The notes beneath the pieces are model-generated. The model did not search any database and was not told the origin of the DNA. It was given only the letters and a program-made list of their open reading frames with translations. A DNA stretch of 64,000 nt from Kondoa subrosea (Eukaryota): NCBI GenBank assembly GCA_039545335.1, contig BCIN01000001.1, forward strand, positions 2,167,129-2,231,128. Reading direction: 5' to 3'. Positions 10,534 to 43,969 of this stretch are shown piece by piece; position 1 is the stretch's first letter, and each line of letters begins with the position of its first letter. The translations under genes were made by a program, and so were the position numbers.

Positions 10534-13500
10534 ATGGCAACTAACGAAGCTGACGTGGTGTGGGCCCTGCATCCCTTCGAAGCAGAAAATCCGTATGTGC
10601 TGCAATGCAAGGACAGTAGTCTTGATAAGCTAAACGCATCTGAATGTCAATAGGGATGAAATCTCATTTGCTGCTGGCGAGCCTATTATTGTGATAGAGC
10701 GAGATGACATGTTTGGAGATGGCTGGTGGCAGGTCAGTAACGTAAAGTCAGTGGCCTCGTCGGAAGCCTGAATCTATCTTGTTGTAACAGGGCCGCAATG
10801 TTTCTGGTCAAACTGGACTGTTTCCTGAATCATATACTACTAAGACGAAAGCTATCAGAGCTCTCGCACCTGCTAGTGGACCAAAAGTCTCAACGGTCTC
10901 TACAATTTCAGAAGGATCAGAGCCTGGAGGAACCATGATGCAATCTACGCTGACTGAAGTCGAGGAAGCTATCCAACAGCAACAGCAAGTCGATCTTCAA
11001 CCGTCTACAACGCGAGAGTCCCATGCTGAGGATCGATCAGATGCTAGATCTATTCGTTCAGTCAGGTCTACGAGATCTAACAGATCTACGCGTTCCAAGA
11101 AGAGTCGAAGAATGGTTCAAGACGATGGGGCGAGCATAGCTTCTCTGGATCACTCTGACGCCGAAGAGCCAGAACGCAATTACCCCAATGCACGTACAGC
11201 TTTAGCTGCCAAAGCTAAGCTTCAACTGGAACAAGCTGCCTTGGCAGCGAAAGAAAGGGAAAGAGACAGACAGCTGGAAGACGAGCGATACAGACAGAAC
11301 AACCTATATACCGATTCTCCACCCATAGAAGGTCTCGAATTGTCGGACGAAAGCGACGCGGACGAAGATCCTTTCAGTCGATCGACCAATTTCGAGAGAA
11401 TGTACAACAATCAGTCTTTGGCTGCAGATTCTCTCGCTGCGCGAACAAATTCCAAGCCTCAGCAATCTTCGTCTTCCTCACCTTTCGCGCGAGATGCGGA
11501 ACGATTTCCTTTACCGAACTCTCCAGCTCCAGATGCGAATTTTGCATCTCAGCAAGCTGCACCTCCAGCTTCTCCTCAACCTGCACGTAGTCACTCGCCC
11601 TCACCATCCCTCAACTCACGGCGATCAAGAAAATCGTTCGACGCTTCTGCACTTCCTCCGGTGCCTCCAGTCCCTGCCGTGATCGAACAATCTACCCAAT
11701 CTCCATCTCGACCGCAAAGCTTTACTGATGGCATCCGACGCTCGTTATCACTATCTCGAAAATCCTCAAGAAACAGCTTAAAAAGTCGAAGAAATTCGGT
11801 CGCGAGCGTCAAACGACCCAGCTCGACTGCTTTGGTCGATCAAACTAACGTAGATGAAGGCCAGACAGTTACTGCAGATGCAGAATCTGCCGAAGCGCAA
11901 CCGCTTGCTAGATCTAATTCCATACCAAGGACCAAATCTGGAACGTTCTCTTCTGCGCTTGTGCCCCAAGCTGATATGGTACCATCTTCTTCTCTGTCTC
12001 AAGAAGAAATCCCTCGCGAGGAATCTCGACCCGCAATTGCTGAATCCTCGTCATCCAATATCAATAGTGCTACATCCCTTCAATCGCCTGCAGAACGCTC
12101 ATTTCCATCTCAAGTACAGCAGATGCCATCACAAATACAACAAGTACAGCCTCAAGCCCAACCCCAGATGCAGCAAGTACAAGCTCAATCACAGCCAGAA
12201 AGAATTCCTCAATCTCTCTCACAAACCATCTATCCTGGAAACGATCCAACTCCTTTGTCTTCCCCGGCTACTGCAGCAACCTACTCTCGACCAGGTAGTC
12301 AAACTGGATATACTCATACTGGATATGGTAATAGCATACGAACACTCGACACTTCCCCCAGAAGCAGTGTCGGAGCCAAAGCATCCGCCGATCCTAGACA
12401 ATGGACTGTTGAGCAGGTCATTGATTGGGGAAGATCGAAAGGATTTGATGCTTTGACTTTGTCAAAGTTTCAAGGTAAGGCCATTGCAAAGAAAGTTGGC
12501 GATAGCTTAGCCTGTGACTTCTGCCTAGAACACGAGATTTCTGGAGACGTGCTGCTTGAGATGGACATCAATACACTCAAAGAGATCGATTTGCCAGCTT
12601 TCGGTCGACGCGTTCATATCAATAACGGGATCAAAGAGCTCAAGCGCCTCATTGAACCTGGCTATACTCCCTCGTCCAATAATACCATGTCCCAATCTCA
12701 AGCCAGCTATATGCAATATCCACGCGATTCGCCTGCTATGTCCGGTTATGAGCCAGATACTCCTCAGTCTCGAAGCGCTTTCTCTCCTTCAGACTCATTT
12801 TCGCCGAACCCGAGTCAGCCAACAACTTCAAGCTTCCCTCCTTCCATTATGGGCGTAGCTTCGTCACAAGCATCAGTGTCGCCTGCACCTTCTTCAGAAG
12901 CGCCTCCTAGGCCCAGCACAGATAGCTCAAAACTACGGGGTCTAGGTCTAGAGAGTACCAATTCTGCTGGTATGCACAGATCGAACACAGATGTAAGTCT
13001 CATGTTGCGATTCTGCTGATTAGTAGCTCACGAGTTTGCCAACGCTTACAGCAAGGACCTGCTCGACCGAAGACCAGCATGTCTGCGAGCGTTATATCTA
13101 GTCACAAGCGGAGCGCGACAGAAGGGACGATGGACTCTTTCATGTCTGCTAATGGCGATGGTCTCGGTAATGTCGACGAGGAAGCTGAATATGGCGATCG
13201 CAATGCTGCAACTGATGTAAGCATTACTTGATTATTGCAGTTGAACGCATCTGATGGAATAACAAGACCGAACTGTTACGGAATGACAGCAGGAAGAAAC
13301 TGGTCCGAAACCAAAGTTCTTCAAACTCGATTGGCTCTAGGCAGCGTACCTCTACCGAGCCCGAAACAGGTAAAACGAGTCCTTGGGGTAGTAGACCATC
13401 CGTCAGCGTGCCGACTAGCCCTGTTGCTCGCAACTCTTTCGCCAAAAAGAGTGGCATGCTCATCAGCCAAACATTACGCAGTCGCAAGGCTCCTCCAACT

Positions 13501-35127: not shown

Positions 35128-36626
35128 ATGGCGTGCGCTCTGCCTCTTTCGCGCCAAAAAAGCAATTATTGACATGATGACAGATTCAGCTTTAGCAAGC
35201 CTGCAACGCCATTCTCGTTTGGAAGTCCAGCTGGAGGTAGTACATCACAGCCTGCTGCTTCTTCTCCCTTCAGCTTCGGAACGAAGCCAGCTACTCTAGC
35301 TTCTACCTCGACTCCAGCATTTTCTTTTGGGTCAGCTTTCAATTCAAGCTCTTCAGTCTTCTATACGCTTAAGTCTTGTACAGAGCACCAGCTCCAACCG
35401 CAGCTAGCACCGGAGGACTATTTGGATCGACCCAAGCACCAGCTAGCTCAGGCTTATTTGGTCAGACTCAGCAACAATCTCAACCTGCTCAGCAACAACC
35501 TGCATCGAATCCATTCGGCGCTAGTCAGCCTAGTACAGGCTTATTCGGTCAATCTCAGCCTGCTCCTGCTAGTAGTGGATTGTTTGGGAGTCAACTTCAG
35601 CAAGGAGGTCTGTTTGGAAGTACATCTCAACCTCAACAGCAAGCGCAGCAACAGCAAGCACCTGCGACGGCACTTTCGAAAAGCACTAAATTTGAAGAGT
35701 TGCCTGAAACTGTGAAAAAACATCTGCAAGAGTTTCAGTAAGTCGTCGGCGTCTCTTCCGCTGTCTCGTAGCTTTCGGGTTGACGAATCTTCGCAGAACC
35801 AATTTGGATGCGAAGAAAGCTATAGCCGAAGAACTAAGTAATAAGGATCTGGGCGATAGCTTATCGAAGACTGCTATACGGATACGAGAAGTATTATCCG
35901 TGCGCTCTTTGTCTCTACCGTCGCTGCAATCCCTTGAAATCACCTCTGCAGGACTTCAACAACCTGCTAGCAGTTTTGGATTCTGCTAAATGGTCATCCG
36001 ATGAAGTTCAAAAACGTTTCGAGAGTGATCTGCAAGATGTTTGTCAAGCAGTGAAGATTGTCGACAATCATAAAGGCTCGCAATCTGCTCCAGTAGTCAA
36101 CACAACAACAAAAGGTATTGTGGATTCTGCCTTTCCTTTCAAGTGCGTCCAGAACGTGCTTAGCAAAGTCGACTTAGTTTAGATGGACGATACAGATATT
36201 TCAAACGGAATGCTGAAGATTTGGCTAAGCGGATAAAAATGTATCAAGATACGATTGATGTGAGCTTTCGGCTGCTCCGTCAATGCCAAATAGAGTGGCT
36301 GAATTATGTCTCGTAGCAAATACAAAGTCAGCTAGCGCATCACGATCCAGATCATGTTAAAGGTAAAACTATCATAGCTGATGGCTCTTTCTCGCTAATC
36401 TGTCATGACAGCTATTGTACCGACTCTTAAAGCGCAACATGCATTAGCTCTCTCGCTTGCAGCCAATATTGCCAGCGTACATGATGATTTGGAAGAAATG
36501 AAACAGGTTTACAGAAGGTTATGGCAAGAGAAGACCGGGCATTCAGGAGTCAGGGATCCGTTTCAAGAAGCCGGTATAACGAATGCGCCTGCTGTGACGG
36601 GACAATTGCAGACTCTGAGGATATAG
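35128..36626 (+). CDS. NUP49: GLFG nucleoporin, Nup49/Nup58 (p58/p45) family
   Basis: MA|FSFSKP..FSFG, repeated GLFG, TKFEELPETVKK, coiled coil, AIVPTLKAQHALALSLA..RDPF. Confidence 0.8.
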
Positions 36627-37824: not shown

Positions 37825-38242
37825 ATTGGCAGGGTGAGGAAAGGGAAGGGGGGGAAAGCTGCACGCTTGGTTTTATGAACAAATGATTACAAAGGTGGTG
37901 ACTAAGAAAACGATGAAAGCAGAAATTGCGTGCTCTCGTAAAAAAAAGGCCGAGATTTGCTTAGTAAGCTGAACTAGCATTTTTCTTCCCAGTGAGCGAA
38001 GAGCCCAGTAGCCTGTGATCACAGGACCGCACTATACAAAGAAGAGCACATGATCACGAATGCATAGATGAGCCTGACAAGGTACAAATAAAAAGTAAGC
38101 ATGCCCTGGTATACGTCTACCCAAAACCGTGAAACCAAAGATGTACAAGATGAATGTGTATAGCGTATAACCATTTTACATCGAAAGAATGTTGCACTGA
38201 TGATGAGTTGTCTTGTCCTTTTGTTGTTGTTTTTTTCCTTGT

Positions 38243-41200
38243 TTATGTACGAGCTGCTTTGGCAGCATGATAGTCTTGAAGATAGTTGGCGACGGTATCT
38301 TTCAGCATGACTATGAGAGTGAATGAATTTTCACTCGAATGTACGCGAGAAATCAAAGGCATACACGCGGTAAAATCATCAAAGTCATTCTTCTTTAACA
38401 CGATATCGCAGAAATTGTTCCAAGAAGCAGATGTAAGCTGCACTGAATGAGAAACATACATATTCAAGAGGCATGACACAAACCTTCTTCAATCGACTGA
38501 GATCAAATAAGCCCGCTTTGATCAGCGCATCAGCAGGAGCCCCACCGAGACCGTCGCCTAGAATACGCTCAACATGCTGTTCATGTTCATAGGACATTGC
38601 TTTTACCTAAGCTTTCGAGTAGGTTGCGCACATCTCGACCAACTCTCGACTGAATTTGAGCAGGAGGTTCCAGAGCATACTTTTGTTGAGCAGGTGCACC
38701 GGGGTCTGAAGGTGGAACGGGTATAAGAGCTGGAACGGGTACAGATACAGGAGGGGCGAGACCGAAGTGAAGTAAAGCGGTTGCAGCACTTGACCTCGCA
38801 GAGTCTTCATTTTGTCTGCAGAGACAATTTAGGCAAGCGGATCAGACAGTACTATGCGGACATACGGGATGTAAGATGTGCTCGGAAAGGGCAAATGGAC
38901 TTGAGGTGAATCCTCTACAGCGATTGTCTTGGGGGAAGCCGAAAGTGAACGACGCTTTTTGATGACTGGAGAATGAACGAGAACACAGAAAGCTGGATCT
39001 TCGTTAATCTCCTCTTCCTCTGGTCGAGGACTGCCTTTGGATTTGTAGGCAACATCGGCGGAGTGTGTGCGATCTCGCTTCAGTGATCTTTCGGAAGTTG
39101 AAGCAGATGGAGTAGAAGATTTGCGAGGACGACCTCTTTGGCGCTTAATCTCGGGCACTGCATTGGCAGCAATGCCGCGAGCTGGTCGAACTTCTTCAAA
39201 GTCTAGACCATCCTCTTTTGCATCGCGCTCTCTTTCCCCAACGACGCTCTTCAAGTCCAGCTTGTGCAGGTCGTAAGCGGTAAAGCCGAGGCTCGGTGTA
39301 GTAGATTTGCGCTTGGTCCGTTGGTTGTCAGCTACATCATCTGGCTCTTCTTTCACTTGAGCCTGAGCTTTGACAGCAGCAGCCTCTCGCATTTGCTTCT
39401 CCAGCCGTCTGTGATGCAGAATGACGATGGAAAACAAACATCGAGAGATCGACTCACTCAGTCTCCCAATCTAATCTACCTTTTTGGTATGGCGCATCAG
39501 CGATAGGAGCAATTCGACTGCTCGAAGCTCGAGGCTGATTTGGACCACTATCAAAACTGCTGGCTACTATGAGCGAGCTGACTTACGACATAGCCATCAC
39601 TCTTCTTGGGCTTTGTAGCAGCAGCATTTATAGTAACAGACGGAGTCGAAGCGCGCGGATGATGATGCTTGGATCGGAATTCAGTCACTCGCCTATCTTC
39701 CGATCAGGATTCAGCTATCGCGTGGTCGTCGAGGACTGACCAGGAGTTATCGACCTCTAAGTAAGAAGCAAACACTTTCCATTCGCAAGCTGGACCGGTT
39801 TTGTTATACTCGCAGACCAATTTGACGTCTCCATTTCGATCTTCTTTAACGGTAGCAGTATAGCCAAACTTTTCCGCGGATCGAATCATGGCCTCTTTTG
39901 TCGAATAACGAGAGCCGACGCCCATTGCGATAGTAGAGGGAGCTGGACCTTGCCGCAGAGAAAGACCAGGTAAAGAGATGGTGTTCTTCTCGATGGCGGT
40001 AGTTGCAGCCATGGAAGGTGAGCGACCTCGAGGCTCTTGAGATTGAAGGACACCGAGAGTGGCTTGCTGGGCAGACTTTTCAGCAGCTTTTGCGAGAGGG
40101 ATGTCCTCGTCTTCTGATTCGTTTTCACCCTCTTCGGAATATGCATCTTCCATGTCGGTATCTTCCACTTGTTCTTGCTTGACAGCCCTCTGCTCATTAG
40201 GCTTAACAGTCGAGAAAGTATTGAAGGTATTTGTATCGCCGCTTGTATGCGAGCCTGAATTTTCTGAGCGAGTGACTTCCCTGCCAATTGATGCGTAAGA
40301 AGCCAACAAACAGATCGACTCCCACAGTATCTCACCATCTATCATTCTGCCAAGTGGCTCTGACCTTCAAATTCGCTTGACAAGGCTTTTTGGTGCACGA
40401 TAGCTCGACATAAACCTCACGATTACCAGGCCTAGCTTTTGTCCTAGCTTTTGTATTGCCGTTGCTAATCGCTGCACGACAGCCTTGACTTTCAGCGGTC
40501 TTTCTCACCATGTAAATGAAGTCGGCCCTTTCGTCATAGATATCGCCCAGATGAGGCATGCAATCTTCGCCTACTGCACGCGTGATATCGTCTTGCGGGG
40601 AACCGAGGCCTCTACCAGCTTCTGCCAAGTTATCCTCGTCAGTCTCCATATCGCTACTCGTGTCATGAGTCTTCTTGGGACTACCTCGATCCCGAGCCGG
40701 AGACTTGAGTTGTGGAACACAATTTTCAGTGGTGTTGTCATGCTGGTCTACCTTTTGATTGACCTCCCTGACCGTTATGACCTCAGCGCAGCACTCAAAA
40801 GCAGATTGCAGCCTTACCAGTAGCCCTGTTTCGGCTGATGAAGAGCCTTGATGAGGAAAGATCTTTTGCAGGGCTTTTGGTTGCAATGAAGAACTACGTA
40901 GCCGTTTCCATTTCCTTTGCCGGTGTTGCGGCTATCTTTGATCTTCAGAGTGCAGCCTCTGGCATCCGCAACTCTTCTGGTAACCTTTTCGAAAGCTGCA
41001 CGGGATTCGAAGAAGTCGCCAATGTTCGGCATTTCTTCTGAATCTCCTGAGACAAGAGTGACAGAGATGGAACTTCCTTGTTGCTGCGCTGCTACTGTGG
41101 CGAGCGCTGTTCCTGAAGCTATAGGCTGCTCAATTGAAGAAACAGTTGAGAGTGGAGAAGAATGTCTTGAATCACCTGAGGGAGCTCTGAGGTAACGGGA

Positions 41201-41899
41201 ACCAGTATATTCAGCGGAAGTTGATCTATTGGTCAAAGCTGATGTATCAACAGTGCCATCGCTTGCCCAATCGTTGACAGGCTCTTCATTTTTTGCAACG
41301 GTTGGACCTTGATCAGGTGTCCATCCTTTTGGACCGATAGGGATAGGTGCAGCAGAGTTGGGAGAGACGACTTCTTTGTTCTTGCGAAACTTGAGACCGC
41401 CGAGACTGAGTTTGGCTGGTTTGTTAGTGACCGCAGCAGCATTTGAGACAGCTGGAACAGTTGGAAACTGTGTCAGAGCTGGAGTAGAGGTTGTTCTAGC
41501 GGCGAAAATTGAAGTGAAAGGATCAGAACCAGAGATGTTACGTGATGTTACGTGAGGTGCCTTGTCGACGAAAGCGGCCAGCTGAGAATGTAGATCCAAA
41601 GACGCTGGTATGGCCTGACCTTGACCTGCTTGAGTTACTCTACTGTCCATCTTCGATACAAAACCACTGGATTGGTAGCTTGAAGAAACGTTTGTGCCGA
41701 CTTCGTATTGAATTGAGAGACTTTGAGCTGACGATACGTCGGTAGTATTCAGCTGCTCGGAAATCCAGCTGTCGCCTTTCAATTTTGCAAGAGAACTAGT
41801 CTTGCGTGCGTTTGGTAAGGAATCGAAGAAGTCACTGGCAATCGGCCTTCGAGCTTTCCCTGGCGGATAGACTTGCCCAGAGGGAACAGATTCAACCAT
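38243..41899 (-). CDS. Putative transcription factor with three MuDR/FAR1-type (WRKY-GCM1 fold) DNA-binding repeats, AT-hook and SAM-like C-terminus; no transposase core
   Basis: Repeats IGDFFESRAAF..CNQKPC..YW|EV..QH, LGDIYDERADF..CTKKPC..RW|EV..SH and VGSRYSTKEAM..CEYNKTGPACEWKV..SW|RVTEFRSKHHHP; AT-hook RQRGRPRK; tail VRNLLESLG|DGLG..ADALIKAGLFDLSRL. Confidence 0.75.
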
Positions 41900-42131
41900 T
41901 CAGAGAGCCAGAAGCCCTCCTGAAAAGCAACTTGGGAAGGAAAGAGACCAGCGGGCGAGAGTCGAGTGAAAGAAGGTCCGTGCGCTTGATCGGCTCAGAA
42001 GCGCTGGCAGCAGTCCGGTACATCGAGCGTCACTACGGCGCTCATGTCCTCGCGCCTTCTTCCTGAATAATTGATGAACCAAACCAAGAAATAATCGTAA
42101 ATTAATTTGTCTGTCTAACCGTCATGTCCAA

Positions 42132-43969
42132 ATGCTAGAGTACCTGTTAGCGCTGCTAGAGTACTATCTATATCAGCTCTCTAGATTAGACCGATTCCTG
42201 GGCCTGCGCGCTGTCTATCGCAATGTTCGTGATGTGCTCAATTTAGCTGGTTGTATTCCAGAAGAGGACAATCTCTCAGATTACGCAGAAGAGTCAGAAT
42301 CCACCTTACACGATATGTACAAAGAAGAAACGGAACAGCAGCTGCTTTTGGCTATGGATGAGCTTTCAAGTGATGTGCAAGCCAATGGTCTTTACATTCC
42401 TGGACTGGTCAACAATGGAGCGAATTCTTGCTTCTTGAATTCTACTCTTCAGGTGCGCTCTACCTGGCATTTCTGTTCGGCTTTTCACTAATAACAATTT
42501 CAAGTCTTTGGCAACAATAAGCGGGTTACTTGTCTTCCTTCACACAGTCATTGCAAGTTGCGAAGATCCCTCGCTCATCTCCACCACCATCGCATTGAAT
42601 GATATGCTGATAGCGCTTGCAACACCTTCTTCGAGTCGAAAAGTACTTCGACCTATTTCTCTCACCAATTCGTTGGCTCGCTCTTCTCCTTCTCGAAGAC
42701 AGCTTCTCAATTCAGATCAACAAGATGCGCAAGAGCTACTGGTTATGCTTCTTGCTGCGGTCGAAGAAGAAGTGCTCAAACTTGAAAACACAATAGCTGA
42801 ATCGCAATCAGCCGATGCAAGTGAACGTCTAGGTTTATTGTGCGCGACTCATCCAACCAAATCATTTGCTCCTGTACGTATCATCCAGTATGTTGAAGCA
42901 TTTTGCTGACAATACATATTAGCCTATGCCGCGACTGCAGTTTCAGAATCCATTCCAGTCGACTATGGCACATCGAATTGCGTGCCTTACTTGTGGCTAT
43001 ACTGAAGCAATACGTATACGTCCGTCAGATCAGCTGACTTTGACAGTACCAAATTTGGTGCGCTGTCTTTGCCTACATGCTTGTAATGTGAAAGCTGAAT
43101 GGCATTCAGCGAACATGCAGCTTGCAAGATATCTTGAGCGAGTCTACTACTTTGGAGATATTGGATCAATATTCCTGTCGTCGCTGTGCATTGCAACTTA
43201 CTAAATATCGACATCAAGAAATCATCACCGCAGCGAAAGAAACAGCCAAAGAAGGGAAATTGACAGACTCCAAGAAGAAAAGGCTGAAAGTCATTCAAAA
43301 GACTGTTGATCATTTGCAAAGCTTGCTTGAGGGCGATGTGCAGGGAGATCTTGGCGAGACCAAGCTGGATAGGATTTTTAGGACAGCCACGAAACAAGCA
43401 GTCTATTCAAAGGTGAGCTAGCCAAAGCACTTGATCAGTATATGCTGATCTGAATCATGGCTTCATAGCCAGCTTCCGTGCTCGCCTTTCATCTGTCGCG
43501 CTCTACTTCGTACATTCGAGGTATGCCAGTTCGCTCAAATTGCGTCGTCACTTTTCCCGAATACCTCGACTTCGACCCGTACTGTCTTTCACCTCAACTG
43601 CCTACGCGTCCAGCTACTTCGATGACTTACGGTCAGAAGGAAAGCGGAAACATGCAATATCGCCTTTCGTCTGCCATCGTCCACTACGGAACACATAACT
43701 TTGGCCACTACATCACGTATCGACGGAGAACCGCACATAGCTCTTCTTGGTGTAAGTAGTTTGATCGAATTTCCGCTGCATTGGACTGAAATCGTGCTCT
43801 AGATCGAGTGTCGGACGAAGATGTTCACTTGGTAGATCTACACGAAGTGTTGCATTCCAATCCTGTCCTGCTCTTCTATGAAAGAGTTCGATCTGGGGAA
43901 AAGAGAGAAGGTGTGTCGGAAGGAAAAGGTCGCATCGTAGCACGTCAATCTACTCCCAACCATGCATAG
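42132..43969 (+). CDS. Ubiquitin-specific protease (peptidase C19, USP30/Ubp1-like)
   Basis: Cys box PGLVNNGANSCFLNSTLQ; QQDAQEL; CxxC pairs; His box YRLSSAIVHYGTHNFGHYITYRR; VSDEDV; LLFYE. Confidence 0.92.

Follow-up and report, generated by a model that had tools for sequence, protein, structure and literature searches.

MULEs (Mutator-like elements) are present in Basidiomycota, and their mutB frame is described as DNA-binding (PMC6446971). Fungal proteins that carry the Mutator-type finger without a transposase are also known: Mutyl derivatives with three to four repeats occur in Yarrowia, and stand-alone copies occur in Ustilago and Cryptococcus (PMC1702500). Here we describe gene A, which lies at positions 38243..41899 (minus strand) of a 64,000-nucleotide (nt) stretch of Kondoa subrosea DNA (assembly GCA_039545335.1, contig BCIN01000001.1, 2,167,129-2,231,128 of the forward strand; the whole stretch is referred to below as the window). 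Its ten predicted exons encode a protein of 1067 residues with three finger repeats (R1, R2, and R3), an AT-hook-like motif, and a C-terminal tail. Together with paralogs in the same genome, gene A forms a lineage-specific family of finger genes of the Mutator type that carry no transposase and share an intron position; two of the members also have a new tail in common.

Comparison with described systems

The MuDR/HxC-type DNA-binding domain of MULEs (DBD_Tnp_Mut, PF03108) has, like the repeats of gene A (in which the helix is predicted), an N-terminal helix, a short Cys spacer, a Trp before the last strand, and His-based C-terminal ligands, and AT-hooks also occur on MULE proteins (PMC1702500). 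Gene A differs from this type in lacking a DDE core or SWIM domain and in containing three copies of the finger, which fall below Pfam detection and have H-x6-C, single-H, and HxH ends, as well as an extra, probably helical, tail. A preliminary description of the locus had presented a multi-repeat architecture of this kind as unrecognised, but the Mutyl derivatives and the Ustilago and Cryptococcus stand-alone forms are likewise fungal, and several fingers without a transposase in one protein are thus already on record (PMC1702500). However, the Mutyl forms are parts of elements, whereas gene A is a single-copy gene with nine introns, a housekeeping context, short-spacer fingers, a shared intron position, and a family-specific tail.

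Aft1/Rcs1, Aft2, and Candida Rbf1 are host transcription factors derived from a MULE DNA-binding domain. They contain a single insert-type finger, with 20-70 residues between the Cys ligands, and have no sequence match with gene A. In Arabidopsis, FRS7/FRS12 carry two FAR1 domains and FRF1-4 carry the FAR1 domain alone, so that duplicated or stand-alone Mutator-derived domains occur in host regulators there too, and the repressor complex in which FRS7/12 work also includes an AT-hook protein. In contrast to gene A, these are plant proteins with FAR1 insert-type domains and no tail of the gene A type, and FRS7/12 are classed with the FRS proteins that bear a transposase core (PMC6000157). The mod(mdg4)/FLYWCH proteins belong to the same superfamily and have their fingers in tandem (up to five) or exon-swapped (PMC1702500), but they form an animal family with a POZ domain; in gene A, an exon border cuts through the finger itself.

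Three finger repeats in gene A

The repeats, all on the minus strand, comprise residues 290-377 (R1, 40719..41032), 431-516 (R2, 40247..40559), and 621-696 (R3, 39659..39934). R1, predicted to be composed of a helix and strands, contains C339-x4-C344, W361, and H370-x6-C377; R2 contains C485-x4-C490, W505, and a single H516; and R3 contains C661-x8-C670, W685, and H694-x-H696, a full C2H2 set (H694/H695/H696). The preliminary description had given these same repeats and ligands, and their similarity exceeds chance. R1 and R2 are clearly related (z-score 22.5, 0 of 1000 shuffles as good), while R3 is more distant from both (7 of 1000 shuffles against R1 and 17 of 1000 against R2), and a whole-genome search with R1 returned R2 at E=2e-8 and 34% identity. 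All three repeats are net basic and keep the hydrophobic core positions, and each contains a Leu two places before the first Cys (L337, L483, and L659), a feature of WRKY-GCM1 domains (PMC1702500).

The Cys spacers of 4, 4, and 8 residues place the repeats with the short-spacer HxC (MuDR) type and not with the insert-containing family of Aft1/Aft2, Rbf1, and FAR1, a change from the MuDR/FAR1-type label of the preliminary description. The Trp of strand 4 described for the insert-containing family is present in all three (W361, W505, and W685). The WRKY-GCM1 ligand set (two Cys plus two His, or His and Cys) is complete in R3 only, and the HxC form of the C-terminal ligands, found in finger 1 of paralog B, occurs in none of the three.

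The predicted structure of R1 is helix-strand-strand-strand (predicted local distance difference test score 61). Fold comparison gave Aft2 as a tied top match for R3, with fold scores for the repeats within the range of common arrangements; Foldseek and a sequence search of solved structures returned nothing significant. The nearest Atlas clusters are the MuDR/HxC-type DNA-binding domain of MULE transposases, and Pfam DBD_Tnp_Mut (cut-off 25 bits) gave no match to any of the three repeat exons, each scanned without its last strand. A Mutator-type (MuDR-like, short-spacer) DNA-binding domain is the best assignment for the repeats. The fingers would then have the WRKY-GCM1 fold and a transposase origin, and presumably bind DNA through strands 1-2; WRKY4 and GCM1 contact the major groove through their first strands, and the NAM version binds DNA without a metal (PMC1702500).

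An intron position shared by the fingers

Introns 1 (40768..40817), 2 (40281..40335), and 3 (39693..39740), all on the minus strand, are found at the same position of each repeat, inside the codons of Trp361, Trp505, and Trp685, respectively, the residue that opens the last strand. All three are in phase 2, which makes exon 2 (432 nt) and exon 3 (540 nt) symmetric: each starts with the last part of a finger, runs through a linker, and closes with the first part of the following finger. Such a pattern may be the trace of a duplicated intron-bounded unit. Between R1 and R2 (66 codons), the proportion of differing sites is 0.83 for synonymous sites (pS), which are saturated, and 0.44 for nonsynonymous sites (pN), indicating that the duplication is old and that the frame has been open ever since.

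Paralogs in the genome

We identified five paralogs of gene A (genes B to F), dispersed over two contigs of the 18.9 Mb genome (27 contigs), which brings the family to six finger genes at the least. The domestication proposed in the preliminary description is thus not a lone one, and the intron position is shared among the genes.

Gene B (contig C1 1357131-~1358830, plus strand; 509 residues) encodes two fingers and no tail. Finger 1 has the canonical HxC end and the Trp-codon intron, and the finger 2 exon scores 13.6 bits with Pfam DBD_Tnp_Mut. The gene was found with a C-x4-C-P pattern that did not target finger 1 (74 matches versus 32 for the control; 68 were translated and six with a stop inside the match left out). 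Genes C and D lie in tandem on the minus strand (C3 ~455400-462050), with D directly downstream of C and ~250 nt apart from it. Gene C (C3 ~462029-459200), found through a chance-frame AFT match, encodes one finger and a helical tail, the latter behind an in-frame stop unless a putative intron removes the stop. Gene D (C3 458951-~455443; 1091 residues), found with an acceptor-side pattern of which all 27 matches were examined, encodes two fingers, the second degenerate, an Arg/Ser-rich stretch, and a tail homologous to that of gene A.

Genes E (C3 ~1746965-1745718, coordinates descending) and F (C1 ~1447060-1445855, coordinates descending) each encode two fingers, the second ending H-x-H. Both were found with a Trp/acceptor-to-His pattern (91 matches; 30 loci and four further stretches scanned) and read by eye from their frames, and the 5' end of gene F may be damaged. 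The two genes, on separate contigs, stem from an old duplication, and each of their four fingers has the Trp-codon intron. Across the six genes, this intron is common to nine of the 12 fingers; as D, E, and F were found with patterns that included the acceptor side, only B is a wholly independent case. Paralogs B, E, and F are closer than gene A to the canonical ligand pattern.

A profile built on the fingers of B, C, and D alone (five in all) matches only the three repeats in the gene A protein, at 11.0 (R1), 6.4 (R2), and 18.6 bits (R3), with 0, 4, and 0 of 1000 shuffles as good, and, with its own gene excluded from the profile, each of the five fingers also beats all 500 shuffles. Pairwise finger scores are under 6 bits, except for R1-R2. 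With an eight-finger profile, the finger exons of gene F are the top-scoring of 107 segments, at 9.9 and 8.1 bits (0 and 3 of 500 shuffles as good). Those of gene E reach only 6.0-6.4 bits, compared to 6.6 for a chance segment, which weighs against counting E in the family; the case for E lies in its motifs and in three stretches of DNA that are 69-77% identical to F. The first finger exon of E and F differs at a pS of 0.74 and a pN of 0.17 over 45 codons, versus a pN of 0.33 in the linker-rich exon; synonymous sites are saturated, and the finger is under constraint.

Other finger patterns added no gene (16 matches; 30 of 114 scanned; 30 of 32; 4 of 4), an HxxRNE pattern gave 220 matches (control, 230), and querying the same genome with the proteins of genes A-D returned only self matches, apart from R2 with R1. 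A cluster of pattern matches on contig C5 and candidates on C8 were rejected, with no finger present. We also observed two similar ~500-residue frames at C5 ~1075000-1085600 (L172 ~1000-2500 and L173 ~1240-2600), in opposite orientation and ~8 kb apart, that appear F-box-like by eye. Some pattern matches form identical or near-identical pairs (C4 1274227 / 1279398; C4 27140 / C6 1326481; C10 507505 / 533579), which point to duplicated or repeated segments.

Outside the genome, an R3 search of 1.84 billion representatives returned ten matches, of which the four listed are unrelated repeat proteins; when compared with the model, none of the ten exceeds 7.4 bits over any one stretch, and they were rejected. 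The protein collection contains no match to the R2 exon (11 candidates), to a six-piece alignment (7343 candidates), or to R3 among short proteins; four metagenome loci with one 12-residue match in a short frame were rejected, and none of 68 candidates on viral contigs matched. This absence is weak evidence, the fungal coverage of the collections being uncertain. We found no paper on the finger family, its shared intron, or the finger-plus-tail layout in a search that most subscription journals lie beyond.

AT-hook-like motif and C-terminal tail

AT-hooks grip AT-rich DNA. In gene A, a basic low-complexity linker contains an AT-hook-like motif at residues 834-843 (39117..39146, minus strand); the AT-hook named in the preliminary description has its Arg-Gly-Arg-Pro core at residues 837-840, but the Pfam AT_hook score of 15.7 bits is under the cut-off of 17.4.

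The protein ends in a hydrophobic domain of ~80 residues, split over four exons (38243..38634, minus strand) and probably helical. It matches the tail of gene D with a score of 55 (z-score 7.7, 0 of 5000 shuffles). The match drops when intron 9 is kept (85 of 5000 shuffles), which supports this intron. As gene D was found through its finger, the match is independent of the search, with the splice sites of D, like those of gene A, inferred from sequence. The tail is thus a real conserved domain, but the SAM-like character ascribed to it in the preliminary description, a likeness by eye, was not supported: a profile of six SAM domains from the same genome scores it at 0.2 bits, with 116 of 1000 shuffles as good. 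Each of the six domains, when left out as a control, beats all 300 shuffles, although so small a profile may miss divergent SAM-like folds. Pfam SAM gave no match to the exon pieces of the tail. Polymerisation on chromatin, suggested on the basis of a SAM identity, consequently has no support, and the tail is best called an uncatalogued, family-specific helical domain.

The tail of gene C is not similar to that of A (1374 of 2000 shuffles as good) or D (927 of 5000) and has no usable match in Atlas; a tail match in gene F is at chance level, and no tail is seen in B, E, or F. Among the SAM domains of the genome, one (28 bits) is C-terminal in an unassigned gene (C3 1334479-1334628, minus strand). 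Another is encoded within the window, by a gene at 10788-13019 (plus strand; SAM_2 match at C1:2179656) that resembles Boi1/2.

Gene model and surroundings

The window is fungus-like, with a G+C content of ~47% and introns of ~50 nt. Removal of nine predicted GT-AG introns of 46-55 nt gives a single open frame for gene A with no internal stop, with the start codon at 41899 and the stop at 38243, the limits given in the preliminary description. Its exons, in order on the minus strand, are 41899-40818, 40767-40336, 40280-39741, 39692-39587, 39534-39458, 39408-38866, 38815-38607, 38557-38484, 38437-38365, and 38310-38243. Low-complexity linker makes up about two thirds of the protein. Residues 1-289 (41033..41899) are rich in Ser, Pro, Thr, and Gln (fraction 0.38), have no Pfam match of weight, and are probably disordered.

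The housekeeping setting described earlier is also correct. Upstream, a 234-nt divergent stretch (41900..42133), likely the promoter of gene A, is common to a head-to-head ubiquitin hydrolase gene. Downstream, MET16, encoding phosphoadenosine phosphosulfate (PAPS) reductase, follows in tandem on the same strand, with 418 nt between the gene A stop and the MET16 start codon (37825..38242), so that the 3' end of gene A faces the MET16 promoter. We found nothing to link gene A to MET16 or sulfur regulation, and a Cbf1-type site is absent from the 418-nt gap. Downstream of MET16, an FG-repeat nucleoporin-like frame (35173-35741, plus strand) was noted by eye; it has no Pfam match.

Neither gap contains a terminal repeat. 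When the 418-nt and 234-nt flanks are compared, the longest exact match is 8 nt for both inverted and direct repeats, a length reached by 118 and 135 of 200 shuffles, and we found no terminal inverted repeat (TIR) or target-site duplication (TSD) around gene A beyond chance. Searching the genome with gene A DNA returned one match, gene A itself. A Pfam scan of most of the frame, in six exon-scale pieces, gave no match to MULE, Transposase_mut, or SWIM, and the 1067-residue model has no room for a DDE transposase core. Genome searches with MULE, Transposase_mut, DBD_Tnp_Mut, and FAR1 gave no candidate, and one with SWIM gave a single sub-threshold match; these searches are weak, as the known fingers are also missed. 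In agreement with the preliminary description, the single copy, the absence of TIR, TSD, and DDE core, the nine introns, and the tight housekeeping context support gene A as a host gene and not a transposon remnant.

Predicted function and alternatives

We think it reasonably likely that gene A encodes a nuclear DNA-binding regulator of transcription or chromatin with three fingers from the N-terminal domain of a Mutator-type (MuDR-like) transposase. The family would have begun with a finger whose Trp codon, just ahead of the last strand, was split by an intron; this ancestor would have lost the transposase core and diversified, in the Kondoa subrosea lineage, into genes with one to three fingers, and in gene A the intron-to-intron unit would have been duplicated twice. 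Each finger may read DNA in the major groove through its first strands, R3 having a complete zinc site and R1 and R2 a changed or lost one, while the AT-hook would add a minor-groove grip on AT-rich DNA. The long disordered linkers and the family-specific helical tail could recruit partners and so regulate transcription or chromatin; gene A is presumably expressed, and its tail presumably has such a role.

An unlikely alternative is that the family controls transposons, with fingers that read Mutator-type terminal or subterminal motifs to block or silence cut-and-paste elements and a tail that recruits or assembles a repressive complex. Binding element ends is the ancestral job of the domain (PMC1702500; PMC6000157), and the fast divergence of the paralogs, seen in the low pairwise scores, combined with constraint on the finger would fit an arms race. 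However, the weak genome searches gave no autonomous MULE candidate, the tail has no supported SAM identity, and characterised MULE-derived factors regulate host genes (PMC6000157). We consider it improbable that gene A does not read sequence at all and is a chromatin scaffold held by its AT-hook and basic linkers, with the repeats serving protein or RNA contacts. The canonical ligand set is lost in two of three repeats, finger 2 of gene D is also degenerate, and most of the protein is linker, but the basic charge and hydrophobic core are kept in all three repeats and metal is dispensable for DNA binding in the NAM domains mentioned above. More speculatively, and at low probability, the genes may be a small fungal analogue of the KRAB-zinc-finger or mod(mdg4) systems: a fast-evolving Mutator-finger set generated by shuffling of an intron-bounded module, with fingers that read transposon ends or other repeats and a tail that builds up a silencing complex. 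Given the symmetry of exons 2 and 3 and the cut of each finger at the same Trp codon, exon skipping could yield hybrid fingers, possibly joining the front of R1 or R2 to the intact His pair of R3 in isoforms with new binding specificity.

It is very unlikely that the repeats are another small helix-plus-sheet domain resembling Mutator fingers by convergence. This would account for the missing Pfam and solved-structure sequence matches and for the unexceptional fold scores, but the ligand pattern, Trp, predicted N-terminal helix, and Leu two places before the first Cys fit the published description in all three repeats, paralogs B, E, and F are nearer the canonical pattern, and the Atlas clusters agree. 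It is also very unlikely that gene A, as yet outside host selection, is an accessory gene left behind by a non-autonomous Mutator element that has died: the transposase-free Mutyl derivatives (PMC1702500) and the spread of the paralogs over two contigs are what such an origin could produce, but a single copy with nine introns, without TIR or TSD, and within a few hundred nucleotides of housekeeping genes on both sides is not, and its 1067 codons are open despite synonymous saturation between R1 and R2.

Implications

Gene A is probably another instance in which a piece of a transposon has been put to new use in gene regulation. This route of domestication is already known; the layout and the family are new relative to the literature searched, and the function of gene A is a prediction from sequence. 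If the prediction is correct, a transposase domain would have given rise, in a small fungal genome, to a set of regulators that expanded in one lineage and that Pfam does not detect, and the shared intron would record both the common origin of the fingers and the mode of their multiplication. The family would also support the published view that new transcription factors of fungi can be built from solo Mutator fingers, and, as its members differ in how far the zinc ligands are lost and some have a new conserved tail, it would be a test case for how such fingers gain host roles.
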